A DNA stretch of 47,081 nucleotides from Pseudomonadota bacterium (lineage in GTDB: Bacteria > Bdellovibrionota_B > Oligoflexia > Oligoflexales > RGVZ01): positions 1-47,081 of the forward strand of contig JBEGVZ010000128.1 of the NCBI GenBank assembly GCA_041178085.1. Direction: 5' to 3'. The position numbers were made by a program. Below are positions 33,001 through 39,000 of the stretch, one piece after another (positions within the stretch are counted from its first letter, which is position 1; each line of letters opens with the position of its first letter).

Positions 33001-36000
33001 CGCTGCACCTCCAATCACAGGCGTCATCATCCGTAGCAGCGCGAATCTGCAGGCCGGCGCCACGAACCGTCTTTCGGCGATCTTTCATGGCATTTTGTTG
33101 TTGGCGGCGATGTTCGCGTTGGCGTCCATGTTGGAGTTTATTCCCGCAGCCGCGCTTGCAGCTGTCCTGATCCATGCCGCATCACGCCTGGTCAATGTTG
33201 CGGCGGTAAAAAAGCTGGCTCAGGAAGAACGCAGGCATCTGGTTACTTTTGCGGCTACTTGCGTTGCGGTGGTGGCCTTTGGTGTCCTGTACGGAGTGGT
33301 TACTGGACTTGCAATCAGCGCCTGGTCGCTATTCCGTAAGTTTGTCCGGCTTGACATTGAACGGCAGGACGACCGGATTGAGCTCCGTGGGACCGCCACT
33401 TTCGTGGATTTGCCAAAGTTGCTCAGGATCCTTGATCGTTTGCCCGATGACGGAGCAGTTTTCGTCTGCACCGAGGGACTGCGTTATGCCGATCCATCGG
33501 TCCGCGACGCCCTGGATGCATGGCAGAAACGCGTTGCGCGCGGGGCAGGTATTGGCGGCTAACGCCGGTTGTGGCTGGTCAATATTCCTTTTGGATCTTG
33601 GCTAGCGAAAATTTTCGCGGGCCCTGGCGCCTCTGACAGAAGCCGTGTACCACGTGACCTGTGATGACCTTGGGGTTGATCACACGCTCCTCAGCGGGGT
33701 GGCCTTCTTTCTGATAAACAATCCCCACTTCTCCCCGCTCAGAAAGTGCTTTCTGAAGCTTTGGGAATTTCTCGCTGTAATCGTCGGGCAGCCGGAAGAA
33801 GCTGCGCAGCCCTTGCCGCATGCCATTTGACTTTGCCTGGTGTGTGAGGCGGATTAATTTGTCCTCCAGGTCGGCCTGGGCTTCTTCCAGCAGGATGTCA
33901 TCACCCGTTGCGCTTTCAATCTGCTCCATGTCGCCGTCCAGGGACTGCGCAAGGCTCAAGAGGGTCTGGCTGTTGTTGCCAAGGTGGTTCACCCAGGTCA
34001 GGATCTTGATATCCGCAACCGGTCCCGACGGCAGTTGATCCAGGCTGATTCCCGCATCCCGCATTTCACGTGCCAGCAAAGGGAATCCAAGCTGGACGGC
34101 GTTCTGTCCACAAAGCGGCATGTTGCCGATGAATTTCAAGAGGTCACCAAAGACCTGGTCGGTTGGTTCAGTGTCATCGCCAGTAAACTGATGGTGGAAC
34201 ACATCCTTTTTACCATCGCTGGTATACTTGAGGGCGGCAACCTCGGTGATCTGGTCGTCCCCTGCTTCGGGACCTGAGGTTGCAATGTCGAGCAGGATGA
34301 TCCCTGCAACGTTGGTCTTTGCAGTGGCATTTTGTGCCATGGGGAAAGGCCTCCGGGTGGTGAAGGTTATAGGATTGTACTGGCGTTACCTTTTGTAAAG
34401 GATTTCTGCATGGTCGGCCCGTCAGAGACCTTCCGTCAACAACTGGCAGGCGAGGCAGCGGCTCGCGGTCTGGCCGTTTGGCAGGCCAATGACAGTCGCT
34501 GGCGGCCGATTCCTCTTGCAACCGAGCCTGTCTTTGTCCCCGCAGATGAATGGCAGGGCCTGGTCGCGGATTGCCGGACGGTGCTTTCGGCCTTTCCCCT
34601 GGTGCTACGATGGTTGCAACAGCCGGCACGGGAAAGGCTGCGCGCGCTCGTGTTTCGTGGGCTTGAAGGCATCGAGGCAGAGCTGGCTGCAAGGGATCCT
34701 GAGGCTTCGCTCGATCACGCGACGATTCGCTTCGACCTGTTCTGGCACGCGGGCTCCTGGCGTGTCATCGAAGCCAACTGCACCATACCGGCCATGCAGG
34801 CCTATAGCGACATGGCACGCGATGCCTGGCTAGCCACTACGCAACGGCAGCTTCCTGATGAAGGGAATACCACGCAACTGCTGGCCAGTTTGATTGGCTT
34901 GCACCGGCGCGACCACCGCGAGGCGGCAGGCCAAGGGGCTGATTTGGATCGCCGCTTGAGGATCGCAATCCTTCATCGCCCGGATGACTCCCAAATGGCC
35001 GAGCTCTCGCATTTCAAGCTGGTATGGTCACGCAACCACCAGGTGAACCTTTGCACACCGGATCAACTTGCGTGGAGGGAAGCCTCAGGTGGTATCCCGG
35101 CTCCGGGCCGGTTTGAGCTGCTGACCAATCCCGTGGATCTTGTTTACCGGCATATCTTTGCCTGGCGTCTGGCACCGCGGTTGGATTTGCTGGCTGCATT
35201 GCGCCAGCATCGTCATGCAGGAATCTATAATCCGGTCAGCGCCCATTACGAGGCAAAAGCGTTTTTTGCCCTCGTCTCGACCATCGCTGACGATGATTCT
35301 CTCTCTCGCGAGGTGGGTTTGCCTGCTTCGCTCCGAGATGCCATCAAGCGCCGGGTGCCCTGGACCCGTGTGATCGGAGACCATGCCCAGGGCGTTCCTG
35401 TAGCTGACATCAGATCTTCCGACCTTGAACACCTGGTATTCAAGTGTTCGTACAGTTACGGCGGTGGACAGGTATTTGTAGGCAGTGAATGGAACACGGC
35501 CCCCGTGCAGGAGCGCTTGCGCGCCGCAACTGGTGTGAGCGGGGCAGTTTCACTCGATCTTTTTTTGCAACATGTTCGTTCCCAGATTCGCCAGGCTTGG
35601 ATCGTCCAGAAACGCATGGACGGAATGAGACACAAGACGACCCTTGCCCACCCTGACTTGGACGCAAGGGTGATTAACGGGTTTGCTGACCTTTCGGTTT
35701 TTGTTGATTGCAACCAGCCGCCTCAATGCGCTGGTGGCGTCTCCCGTTTTGCCTCTGGGCCGGTCGTCAACATCGGCACCGGTGGCGGACTGGCGCCTTT
35801 GCAGATCGTTTGAACGTTCTGTTTGCGATCAAACCAGACCGCGTCCCTGCAGGATCCGCAGGAAAGACCGGGTCTGGATTTCCTCCAGCGTCAAACCAGT
35901 GGCCGTTGCTTCTGCCTGGGTGATTGCACCGCAGTTAAGGCCCCGAAGGAAGAAGTTAAGCAAGCCTTGAGCTGTCGCGGCATCGTCAAAGACCGATCCG

Positions 36001-39000
36001 TGTAGGGTTGCTTGCGCGGCTTTGTTGATAAAACCCTGCAGGCGTTGCGAAACCTGGTCCAGGCTCTCCATGAAAAAAGCGTGCATGGCAGCATAACGGA
36101 CCGGGATTTGCGCTGGATGCAAATCCCAACCCTGATAGTAGCCGCAAGATAGCGCATGGCGGATGTTCCGGTAAGACAGCATCCACGCGGCATGCACAGC
36201 GCGCGCATTCTGTGTTTGCTGCTCCCTGGTAAGGGCAGAAGCTGTCTTTTCCCGATGAACTGGAACGGGCATCACGTTGGTGGCGCCGTCCGAAATATGG
36301 ACCGGAGTACCGGCAAGGCTCACTTGCAGCACATGACGAGCGAAGTCGCAGGCCGGGCTGTCAAGAGCCTGCGCCGAAGCGACCAGTTCACAGCTTGAAG
36401 TGTAATCGTAGGCCCCAAGGTGGGCTCCTGTGCAGCGTCCATCGGCGGCATCCAGGATGGACCGGATCGCTGAGCGACCCGTGTGGTCAATGATGACCTG
36501 CGGGCATTCAACCATGATCTCGAACCTGAGTGACCTTGGCTTCAACTTGCGTTTTTTCTCTACGGCCGCAAGCAATTCCGCCATTGTGCGGGAGTGTTCC
36601 GGCACCGTGATTTTGGGTAAGGTGATGACGAAGTTATCTGGCAGGCGATTACCCGATGCATCGAGCAACTCCGTCAGAAAGAGGCCAAGCGTCCGGATGC
36701 TGCGGGTCCGGTTTTCCAGGTTGAACGGTTTGATGCGAAAGCCAACGAAGGGCGGCAGGGTGCCGGTGCGCATGCCGGTCGCAAGTTCACGCGCCGCAGA
36801 CACAGCGTGTCCGTCCTCCTCTGAATCGGGACGGTTTCCGTAACCATCCTCGAAATCGATGCGAAAGTCCTCAACGGCTTCGGCTTTGAGCTTCGCAATG
36901 ACGCGGCCGTGCACTTTTTCTGCGAGGACGTGATCCATTTCAAAGATGTCCGCAAAAACCCTGGCGTCGGGCGCCCAGCTGGTCATGGCGTTGATGGCAT
37001 GATCACGGATTTTTGCGGCAGTTCCGGCCGTAAAGAGGTGCGCACCACCATAGACCGTGTGCACCGGCTGTCGCCTCTCGCTCATGCCAGTGTATCGTCC
37101 GGCGAATGCGCGATTTGCGCGGTCGAGGCGGTTGATGATCGATGGCGCTCCCGTACCGAAAATCGCCGGCAAGGCTGTCTTGTTGCGGCCGCTTGGTTTT
37201 GATGCTGCCATGGTCAGGTCCCGCTCAGCTGCCGCGGTAAGTTGAGTACCCAAACGGACTCAGCAAAAGCGGGACGTGATGGTGGCGACCGGCGTCAGTG
37301 ATATTGAAGGTGATTTCCACTACAGGGAAGAAAGAGGTTTCTCCCTGGGTTTTGAAATATTCGCCGGTGGAGAATGTCAGGCGGTAAGTGCCCGTGGATA
37401 CAGGCTGTCCGGGAGGTAGAAGAGCTTCGCAGCGACCGTCGTGATTGGTGCGGCTTTCGTTCATGCGTTCGAATTTGCCATGGCGGTGGTGCTCAAGGAG
37501 CACCGGCACACCAGCCGCAGGCAGACCGGTTTTCAAATCCAGTACGTGAGTGGTGACAGGGCTTCGTGGTTGCGTGTTCATTGGGTCTAGGGCTCCAAGC
37601 CAGGTCAGTTGTCCGTGATCGGAGCACCAGCGTCCACCCAGCGCCCGAGAATTTGGCGTTCCTCTTCCGTGATGTTCGTCTTGTTCCCAAACGGCATTGT
37701 GTGGGAGTCGACTGCGCGGAATTTGATGCGCGCTGCGAATGCCTGGGCAGTGCGTGGGTCGTCAAACATCATTCCTGCCGGTGCTACCGTGAACACATCG
37801 TCGGTCGGATTTTGCGAGTGGCATGTCGTACACCGTGTCTGGATGATCCCCCAGGCTTCCGAGAACTTTGGTGGTGGCGAACCGTCCCCAGACGCTTTTT
37901 TCGGGGCTGCAGTCACAATGATAGCGGAGAGGACTGCGATCACTGGCAGCGCCAGCCAAGCGACCCGGGGTTTGGCGATGATCTGCATGTGCCGGATTGC
38001 CCCGCCGACAAAAGTCATTCCCAGCAGGATCACCCAGCTCCACGGTCCGGAGTAGGTGGACGGGAAGTGGTTGCTGATCATGATGAACAGGACAGGCAGG
38101 GTCATGTAGCTGTTGTGGACACTGCGCGTTTTTGCGGCCTTGCCCAGGTTGTAATCCGGGGTGCGGCCCTCCCGGGTGGCGTCGATCATGGACTGTTGGG
38201 CTGGCAAGATCCGCACCCAGACGTTCAGAACCATGATCGTGCCAAACATGGCCCCGACGTGGATAAACGCACCACGCCCGGTGAAGATCTGGCTCAGCCC
38301 CCAGGAGATCGCGGCCGTTGCTGCGTAGCAGATGGCCAAGGCAAAAGTAGAGTGTTCCTTTGCAAAACGGGATTTCCATAGCAAATCGTAGAGGATCCAG
38401 GTCGCAGCCAGCACGCCAATCCCAATGGCCGATGCCGTTCCGTGGCCAATACTGGTCTTGGCCGGGTTGATCAGGTAGGCCGAGTCGGACAGGTAGTACA
38501 CGACCGCAAGCAGCGTGATACCACTCAGCCAGGTGAAAGTGGCCTCCCACTTGAACCAGTGCAGGACCGAGGGCATGGACCCGGGGCCGATCAGGCGCTT
38601 CTCAACCTGATAGAAGCCGCCACTGTGGACCATCCAAAGCTCTCCCTCAACCCCCTCCCGGGGCTTGGCTGGTGCCTCCAGGGCCTTGTCCAACCACATG
38701 AAATAAAAGGAGCTTCCGATCCAGGAGATGCCGGCTACCAGGTGAAACCAGCGCAGGGCAAGATTAAGCCATTCTGAGAGGTAAGAATTCATGGCTAAAC
38801 CTTGGCAAAACCGAAGCTTAAACGCAATTGAAAATCCGGCGTGGATACGATACGACCCCGGTCGCCCTGTCAGTTTTTCAAATTCGAATTCCTGGAACCT
38901 CTAAACCCTGCGGGGGGTGCTTGTGGATTTTTTGAGGTATGTGGACCTGATCATTGTCGGAATCACGATGGCGATCGTGGTCAGCCTTTACTTCCTTAAC

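Follow-up and report, generated by a model that had tools for sequence, protein, structure and literature searches.

We read the DUF6986 protein g02680, with moderate confidence, as a Mg2+-dependent, CoA-using enzyme of the CitE/malyl-CoA lyase superfamily, whose role would be the disposal of glyoxylate derived from urate. The predicted reaction is an acetyl-CoA-dependent condensation of glyoxylate, of malyl-CoA lyase (MCL) or malate synthase (MS) type. We put this slightly above even, and roughly half of its weight lies with the case in which the same protein doubles as ureidoglycolate lyase (UGL). The first-pass annotation had placed the family at the glyoxylate-handling end of purine breakdown, as either synthase or lyase, and both readings are carried here. 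The fold, a conserved active site and the gene context agree well with that placement, but one branch lies in ethylmalonyl-CoA operons of genomes in which no urate pathway was found, so that the family is not restricted to purines.

DUF6986 is spread over many phyla (by record titles Bdellovibrionota, Myxococcota, Acidobacteriota, Bacteroidota, Verrucomicrobiota, Actinomycetota and others) without an assigned function, and genes for the pathway beyond ureidoglycolate are usually lacking there. As had been noted before, no paper carrying the name was found; nor did the literature searched, mainly the main texts of open-access papers, yield a characterisation of DUF6986, of the locus tag SCO1079 or of an Accumulibacter methylmalyl-CoA lyase.

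Gene organisation around g02680

The window is the whole 47,081-nucleotide stretch analysed, Oligoflexales contig JBEGVZ010000128.1. Here ORF calls and profile searches bear out a previously described row of three genes at 35829–38792, all on the minus strand. The row begins with a PuuD-type membrane cytochrome c urate oxidase (37605–38792, minus strand; 395 aa; Urate_ox_N E 3.8e-108), followed after 23 bases by 5-hydroxyisourate hydrolase (HIUase; 37225–37581, minus strand; 118 aa; Transthyretin E 6e-40; 144.7 bits against a TIGR02962 cut-off of 87.45). A gap of 13 bases separates the end of HIUase from the ATG of g02680 (35829–37211, minus strand; 460 aa from ATG; PF22484 E 3e-166), which spans profile positions 2–408 of 408 and lies above the Pfam cut-off. 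The search for promoters and minus-strand terminators gave nothing above chance. Profile searches gave g02680 neither a PF01274 nor an NCBIfam match, there being no NCBIfam model for it, and PF04115 (the AllA/DAL3 cupin) matched neither the protein nor its genome.

The middle pathway steps missing from the row are provided by the fusion g02649 (2024–6895, plus strand), which joins a barrel derived from malate synthase A (MSA) and MS_C to an OHCU decarboxylase, a beta-lactamase-like domain and two allantoicase repeats. It is the only MS-barrel match in the genome (96% complete), where ICL, AllA and gcl were not found, in line with the earlier report that ICL, canonical MS and AllA are all lacking.

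Fold and family membership

The predicted model of g02680, built on a 150-row alignment, has a pLDDT of 95.4 and forms a TIM barrel whose lid is a C-terminal beta-hairpin (402–409); the beta8/alpha8 barrel and the helix-hairpin-helix lid that mark the superfamily are both seen in it. The Foldseek E value is about 1e-9. By VIA the model superposes on malyl-CoA lyase 4L9Z with Z 28.9 (rmsd 2.2, 294 residues), followed by CLYBL (28.0), malate synthase H (MSH, about 25), MSA (23.7) and malate synthase G (MSG, about 21). Judged from the model, the nearest folds are thus CoA-thioester enzymes, and the likeness to MS, MCL and CitE is stronger than first claimed. Sequence comparison reaches the same enzymes only through profiles: a single-sequence search of PDB sequences with g02680 gave nothing, profile searches with the family reached MCL, CitE and MS, and the DUF6986 profile aligned to an MCL set with a probability of 99% and weakly to MSA (88%, 150 columns). 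Some homologues give weak partial PF01274 matches only, as noted earlier. In the ESM Atlas, structure matches were DUF6986 clusters and a single CitE-like cluster, and the feature search gave no usable match.

The proposed label "compact malate synthase" fits the modelled architecture less well than "malyl-CoA-lyase-like". As in MCL, the best structural match, the lid follows directly after the barrel, and g02680 has neither the N-terminal domain nor the separate C-terminal plug of MSA and MSG; it falls short of these families by the PF01274 and TIGR01344 cut-offs and by its terminal domains. Malate synthases A, G and H score lower (Z 21–25); they have the catalytic set in common with DUF6986, and MSA also has a similar lid motif. 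The protein also departs from MCL: identity is about 15%, the chain is longer by about 100 residues, a helical insertion separates beta-1 from the CoA helix, and an invariant Asp follows the Trp of beta-8. The names "phosphoenolpyruvate kinase" and "citrate lyase beta subunit" were set aside as source names only; citrate lyase partners are absent among the recurring neighbours.

Active site and predicted CoA pocket

Conservation was counted in 86 purine-linked and 38 ethylmalonyl-clade sequences (124 in total). R159, E235, D269, E121, D122, D119 and D409 are each present in 86/86 and 38/38, and the conserved Arg, Glu, Asp and lid Asp align with their MCL counterparts. With roles taken over from characterised superfamily members (PMC3832036), E121, D122, E235 and D269 would be ligands of Mg2+ or of its waters, and R159 and the lid residue D409 would be catalytic.

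V53, Y54, R103, V104, K107 and P366 are predicted to line a CoA pocket, a mapping that comes not from coordinates but from aligning the family with an MCL set anchored on the C. aurantiacus structure. Its beta-1 part (V53, Y54) is placed by motif likeness only; global hhalign left beta-1 unaligned because of the helical insertion. R103 and K107 align to the helix of HaloMS that holds M30 and R33, which bind adenine and the 3'-phosphate, and P366 to the proline that caps the adenine (PMC3112382). Among purine-linked sequences K107 is found in 86/86, Y54 in 85/86, P366 in 83/86 and R or K at 103 in 78/86, while positions adjoining the CoA-helix residues vary freely among homologues. W362 is present in 124/124. 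Y268 (83/86 purine-linked, 38/38 ethylmalonyl clade) takes the place of Ala183/Ala167 of MCL and is bulky like Trp277 of MSA, before the Mg-binding Asp. The small Ala, which admits propionyl-CoA, is said to be 100% conserved in the two MCL clusters, and the Trp of MSA to hinder this substrate (PMC3832036).

The main alternative is that DUF6986 is a UGL only and its CoA pocket a relic, in earnest use solely in the ethylmalonyl clade; we consider this a serious candidate, if somewhat short of even. It has a precedent within the MS fold, the Danio rerio protein DrMSL, which like DUF6986 is tied to allantoicase and uricase at the last step of purine breakdown (PMC10120013). DrMSL derives from MSA, has lost the acetyl-CoA site and has Trp365 changed (PMC10120013), whereas DUF6986 is CitE/MCL-like and has kept both the Trp and the residues aligned to the CoA site, a strict conservation that speaks against a relic. 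The MS-like UGL group is described as eukaryote-only (PMC10120013), and its marks, i.e., MSA ancestry, a lost acetyl-CoA site and changes at Arg276/Trp365, are not those of DUF6986. In favour of the lyase, H264 (85/86) and N312 (80/86) are kept in the purine-linked set, and they are lost in 37/38 and absent from all 38 ethylmalonyl-clade sequences, respectively.

Association with purine catabolism

Among 80 homologous loci, a set biased towards the closest relatives of g02680, ureide genes adjoin DUF6986 in 57 and HIUase lies within 1.5 kb in 41. In 201 Actinomycetota, 83 genomes exceed the PF22484 cut-off and only 22 hold true members (E <= 1.5e-38); seven of eight weak matches fetched align as CitE/MCL-like proteins and the eighth is a shadow ORF. 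Since CitE proteins exceed the Pfam cut-off, the first-pass figures for family frequency (9%) and HIUase adjacency (19%) are suspect, and the counts behind them (17368 genomes; 2091 of 11103) are probably distorted.

The distribution of the family follows the production of ureidoglycolate by both routes, as expected of a lyase. It occurs in 19 of 29 allantoicase-bearing Actinomycetota versus 3 of 172 without allantoicase, and the clusters of two of these three include ureidoglycine aminohydrolase, while the third genome has allantoinase. The cupin AllA/DAL3, which has a fold unrelated to DUF6986 and the same pathway position (after allantoicase or ureidoglycine aminohydrolase), is nearly always missing: PF04115 is absent from all 80 loci and from the 22 actinobacterial carriers, and it matches 5 of 41 genomes with allantoicase and DUF6986, only one of them strongly. 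On the other hand AllA is rare in Actinomycetota anyway (1/201), 10 of the 29 allantoicase genomes have neither protein, ureidoglycolate also decays spontaneously (PMC3793230), and a strong AllA match stands alongside DUF6986 in G042 and two Corallococcus genomes (G087, G088). Four weak PF04115 matches in Pyrinomonadaceae-labelled genomes (E about 1e-15) were not counted as AllA; in the three whose neighbours were read, G072 not among them, the match sits among ORFs that look NADH-dehydrogenase-like in translation.

A link between malate synthase and purine catabolism is already known, and L173 shows it here. In 30 of the 41 genomes with allantoicase beside DUF6986 canonical MS was not found, and gcl was found in none of the 41, so that a glyoxylate sink would otherwise be missing there; this favours the condensing enzyme, although most of the genomes compared are MAGs of unstated completeness. 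The Actinomycetota count against it, as canonical MS co-occurs with DUF6986 in 19/22 carriers rather than being replaced, and gcl in 10/21 tested. The neighbourhood of glyoxylate consumers likewise agrees with a lyase: MSA directly adjoins DUF6986 in 2 of 20 actinobacterial loci (L173, in the order malic enzyme-MSA-DUF6986-ureidoglycine aminohydrolase, and L181), GlxR in L168 and L170, hyi in L179, and in L187 a class V aminotransferase, another possible sink, directly follows it. Malic enzyme lies beside DUF6986 in L179, but the idea that DUF6986 would therefore be the sole malate source there was rejected, since that purine island also contains MSA at a distance of 27 kb. A substitute for malate synthase beside ICL was also rejected: ICL exceeds its cut-off in 10 of 50 genomes and all ten retain canonical MS, so that DUF6986 is not visibly replacing MS in the glyoxylate shunt.

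Proposed reaction

If g02680 works like the malyl-CoA lyases and malate synthases of solved structure, Mg2+ on E235/D269 would bind glyoxylate, D409 of the lid would deprotonate acetyl-CoA and R159 would stabilise the enolate. The aldol step would give malyl-CoA, to be hydrolysed to malate by g02680 or by a thioesterase. A trimeric or hexameric assembly, with each lid over the active site of a neighbour, is a mark of the CitE-like/MCL/MS superfamily that g02680 may share. If the protein is also the UGL, ureidoglycolate would be split first at the same metal site, with the net conversion of ureidoglycolate and acetyl-CoA to malate, urea and CoA. A two-in-one enzyme was proposed by Dembech et al. 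only as a possible ancestor. Apart from the alignment-based pocket and the genomic evidence above, the MSA-derived domain of g02649, which retains most CoA-site motifs, counts against the condensation, as does Y268, yet the latter is also invariant in the ethylmalonyl clade.

Another CitE-type acyl-CoA lyase or thioesterase, acting on citramalyl-CoA or HMG-CoA or only hydrolysing malyl-CoA, with a purine link other than direct glyoxylate turnover, is improbable: CitE-like enzymes are promiscuous (bioRxiv 10.1101/322404), and purine clusters are lacking around four Streptomyces-like loci and several of Pyrinomonadaceae and Corallococcus, which adjoin ETF/LacI/ROK or peptidase genes, but ureide genes prevail at the homologous loci, glyoxylate is common to both recurring contexts, and W362 with the bulky Y268 suits a small 2-oxo acid and a short acyl group.

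The ethylmalonyl-CoA branch

The link of DUF6986 to ethylmalonyl-CoA operons is new in this analysis. Most members are found in purine operons, and one clade (FastTree support 1.0), nested among purine-linked members under midpoint rooting and up to 61–62% identical to them, stands at the head of the gene order DUF6986-acyl-CoA dehydrogenase-mesaconyl-CoA hydratase-mutase-meaB-ccr in Accumulibacter and other hosts. Of 80 metagenome loci near this clade, 55 have ethylmalonyl-type neighbours, 10 purine genes and none both. In G292 and G370, where ccr and malate synthase A are present, no CitE-like gene other than DUF6986 was found, and the branch therefore looks like a new (methyl)malyl-CoA lyase. 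Judged by its sequences and operons, this derived branch would have moved into the pathway and was probably recruited as a (beta-methyl)malyl-CoA lyase. Recruitment to an acyl-CoA pathway within about 61% identity would be easier from a CoA site that was functional beforehand, which is a further point against a lyase with a relic pocket.

It is tempting to speculate, though as a whole we hold it only tentatively, that one Mg site both splits ureidoglycolate and condenses the bound glyoxylate with acetyl-CoA, so that the last two carbons of the purine ring end up in malate and the free aldehyde never leaves the site, and that the branch without H264 and N312 has become a further, unrecognised type of beta-methylmalyl-CoA lyase, with which relatives of Accumulibacter and other bacteria complete their ethylmalonyl-CoA pathway. 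With this branch a candidate emerges for a lyase missing from relatives of the bacterium chiefly responsible for phosphate removal in wastewater plants. Purine-linked and ethylmalonyl members, about 61% identical and differing at about ten positions, form a natural pair suited to the study of what directs one fold to C-N cleavage, to C-C cleavage or to synthesis.

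Family Assignment and Fold

DUF6986 belongs to the CitE-like superfamily, but in membership tests it fell outside MSA/MSG, canonical malyl-CoA lyases (MCLs), eukaryotic ureidoglycolate lyase (UGL) and AllA, the cupin UGL. The reactions considered below are already known; what is new is the protein family proposed to carry them. A literature search found no paper using the term DUF6986, as the first-pass annotation had stated. The global counts given there look distorted, because CitE/malyl-CoA-lyase-like proteins pass the Pfam cut-off: PF22484 was exceeded in 83 of 201 Actinomycetota, only 22 of which carry true members, and the weak matches fetched from this phylum were of that CitE/malyl-CoA-lyase-like kind.

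The structure model of the 460-aa protein g02680, built on 150 diverse homologues (pLDDT 95.4), matched malyl-CoA lyase best (Z 28.9, rmsd 2.2 over 294 residues), followed by CLYBL (Z 28.0), while malate synthases (MS) scored lower (haloarchaeal about 25, MSA 23.7, MSG about 21). The protein was aligned by profile with eight MCL-like proteins (probability 99%), among which is a near-identical counterpart of the solved enzymes from C. aurantiacus and Roseiflexus; this placed D119, E121, D122, R159, E235, D269, W362, P366, and D409 on known metal, catalytic and lid positions (roles from PMC3832036). All except P366 are invariant in 86 purine-linked sequences and the 38 of an ethylmalonyl clade described below. 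P366 aligns with the adenine-capping proline, and R103, V104, and K107 map to the helix whose Met30 and Arg33 bind adenine and 3'-phosphate in the haloarchaeal synthase (PMC3112382). K107 is present in 86/86 purine-linked sequences, with K/R in 141/150 of the diverse set, in contrast to the variable positions 99, 102, 105, 109, and 110. The CoA pocket thus appears, from these alignments, to be kept; V53 and Y54 (beta-1) were assigned to this putative pocket by motif likeness only. Y268 of DUF6986 takes the place of Ala in MCLs and of Trp in MSA. bioRxiv 10.1101/322404 and PMC9041414 were also consulted.

The Gene Row and Its Host Genome

The single minus-strand row described in the first-pass annotation is borne out as three consecutive genes (35829-38792), namely a PuuD-type urate oxidase (37605-38792), HIU hydrolase (HIUase; 37225-37581) and DUF6986 (35829-37211), separated by 23 and 13 bases. 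The host genome is 96% complete and has xanthine dehydrogenase genes. Searching it upheld the earlier statement that ICL, a canonical malate synthase and AllA are missing; gcl was likewise not found, nor was any MS barrel other than that of g02649 (2024-6895, plus strand), a fusion of MS-like, OHCU decarboxylase, beta-lactamase-like and allantoicase domains lying 29 kb away in the same window. In G003, of the same genus, the row is full (PuuD-allB-alc-uraD-uraH-DUF6986) and no other MS-fold gene is present. The host row is without allB, alc, and uraD, at least two of which are supplied by the fusion, and it has kept DUF6986. DUF6986 occurs in 14/14 genomes of genus g3 and the fusion in 7/7 tested, and their coexistence there and in the host suggests that the two do different jobs. 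The fusion's MS-like domain is MSA-derived (probability 100%) and retains the Trp and the majority of the CoA motifs, yet residues equal to Thr95, Arg276, and Trp277 are changed, so that sequence does not settle how lyase and synthase roles are divided between the two proteins.

Searches of the host genome yielded no allantoinase gene, and a candidate for this step is the fusion's beta-lactamase-like domain. The best AllB-like match (contig C112, 35087-36451), flanked by ORFs read as pyrB and carA/carB, is probably a dihydroorotase. PuuE (TIGR03212) was absent from the host, G003 and two further genomes (G008, G013). Divergent from the operon lies a GlpT/UhpC-like MFS transporter gene (38917-40476, plus strand), and a similar N-terminus adjoins DUF6986 or PuuD in the same-genus G003 and G004; its product may carry ureides or organic acids, or the arrangement may be no more than local synteny. 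A convergent 493-aa ORF (34332-35813, plus strand) had no match in Pfam or NCBIfam; by eye we take it to resemble an ATP-grasp/glutathionylspermidine-synthase-like protein. Five loci in g3 and genome G007 (L192, L197, L200, L201, L202) carry, away from purine genes, a strongly diverged DUF6986 directly after a ribosomal-protein-L20-like gene (read from translation), with catalytic and CoA-site residues retained.

Purine and Ethylmalonyl-CoA Contexts

Of 593 confirmed GTDB loci, the best 80 were labeled by local HMMs named through Pfam; 57 of them had a core ureide gene in the examined flank (HIUase 54, OHCU decarboxylase 53, allantoicase 45, allantoinase 43, PuuD 24, uricase 15), usually in the order allB-alc-uraD-uraH-DUF6986, and none had AllA or MSA within the locus. 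Whole-genome searches covered 50 of these 80 genomes; in the 41 picked for allantoicase beside DUF6986, whose completeness is unstated, PF04115 (AllA) matched in five (one strongly), a canonical MS in 11 and gcl in none. Among 201 Actinomycetota, whose kinship makes them non-independent, DUF6986 was found in 19/29 genomes with allantoicase vs. 3/172 without, and these three have it in purine clusters; AllA occurred in one of the 201, and a canonical MS in 19/22 carriers. These counts include unpublished genomes (G178 as DUF6986-, allantoicase- and MS-positive; G091, G108, G138, G158, G210, G236, and G261 as weak matches or MS-only) and the pattern is unchanged when they are omitted. Of 20 fetched actinobacterial loci, 14 are purine clusters; MSA directly adjoins DUF6986 in two (L173, L181), GlxR is nearby in two, and urease genes follow in one.

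Two of the best 80 loci, L096 (Ca. Accumulibacter iunctus) and L046 (a gammaproteobacterium), instead have DUF6986 heading a non-purine row with acyl-CoA dehydrogenase, mesaconyl-CoA hydratase, a B12 mutase and MeaB, followed in L096 by ccr, the only gene above its equivalog cut-off (TIGR01751); mcd and ecm were assigned by family, length, and position in the row. When metagenomes were scanned with this branch as the seed, 298 loci were confirmed; of the best 80, 55 had ethylmalonyl-type neighbors and 10 had purine genes, no locus had both, and 15, mostly short, had neither. Many are close Accumulibacter-like copies, leaving about three independent lineages, one ordered ccr-dehydrogenase-DUF6986. 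In a tree of 158 sequences, which took in 45 of the 80 metagenome loci and omitted rows below 380 aa, the ethylmalonyl members form one clade (support 1.0), nested under midpoint rooting among purine-linked members, to which they are up to 61-62% identical. The clade differs from these at ten positions, including the putative substrate sites H264, 283, N312, H365, and V407. Allantoicase was not found in G084-G086, nor OHCU decarboxylase in G084, G292, G309, G370, and G394. A separate MCL is present in G086, G309, and G394; in G292 and G370, ccr and MSA occur along with the complete row, and no other CitE-like gene was found. The simplest reading is that this clade's DUF6986 represents a (beta-methyl)malyl-CoA lyase of a new type, to be taken with caution because Y268 is retained and the MAGs may have gaps. 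A literature search for methylmalyl-CoA lyase with Accumulibacter returned no paper.

At L096 (638-17157) this row and a second cassette, which encodes a malyl-CoA lyase of the C. aurantiacus type, a hydratase and three CoA transferases, stand back to back. Neither ccr nor a second CitE-like gene was found in G084 (L046) and G085 (L060), gammaproteobacterial or Pseudomonadota carriers of the clade protein, which in G084 is accompanied by dehydrogenase, hydratase, and mutase; this suggests a partial or degradative pathway, or MAG gaps.

Synthase, Lyase, or Both

Glyoxylate is the metabolite shared by both contexts, and the ethylmalonyl-CoA context requires CoA chemistry. We lean slightly toward a condensation that depends on acetyl-CoA and yields malyl-CoA or malate, with about half of that weight on an enzyme having UGL activity as well; these gradings are judgement, not computation. 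Condensation is favored by the conserved putative CoA pocket and lid Asp of the purine-linked majority, and because in most non-actinobacterial carriers no other glyoxylate sink was found. That DUF6986 is purely a UGL is a tenable but less probable alternative. It accounts for the absence of AllA, for malate synthases adjoining DUF6986 and for the purine linkage of H264 and N312. The zebrafish enzyme offers a precedent, although its CoA site has been lost and it is devoid of MS activity; UGL activity was absent from a true MS (PMC10120013). The missing-AllA argument is also weaker than it seems, because 10/29 allantoicase-bearing Actinomycetota have neither AllA nor DUF6986 and ureidoglycolate decays spontaneously (PMC3793230). 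Members of the actinobacterial subfamily may act as lyases, and those of the main clade as synthases or in both ways.

In four large actinobacterial genomes (L167, L169, L172, L175), at a guess Streptomyces-like, DUF6986 adjoins LacI, ROK or ETF genes and malate synthase lies near allantoicase, away from DUF6986. Several actinobacterial purine clusters encode a xanthine/uracil permease fused to an OHCU-decarboxylase-like domain (L168:14790-16715, L171:6044-7987, L179:15647-17590). A divergent AllA-family cupin lies amid NADH-dehydrogenase-like genes in Pyrinomonadaceae-labeled genomes (L211:9699-10157, L213:9220-9684, L214:9927-10385).
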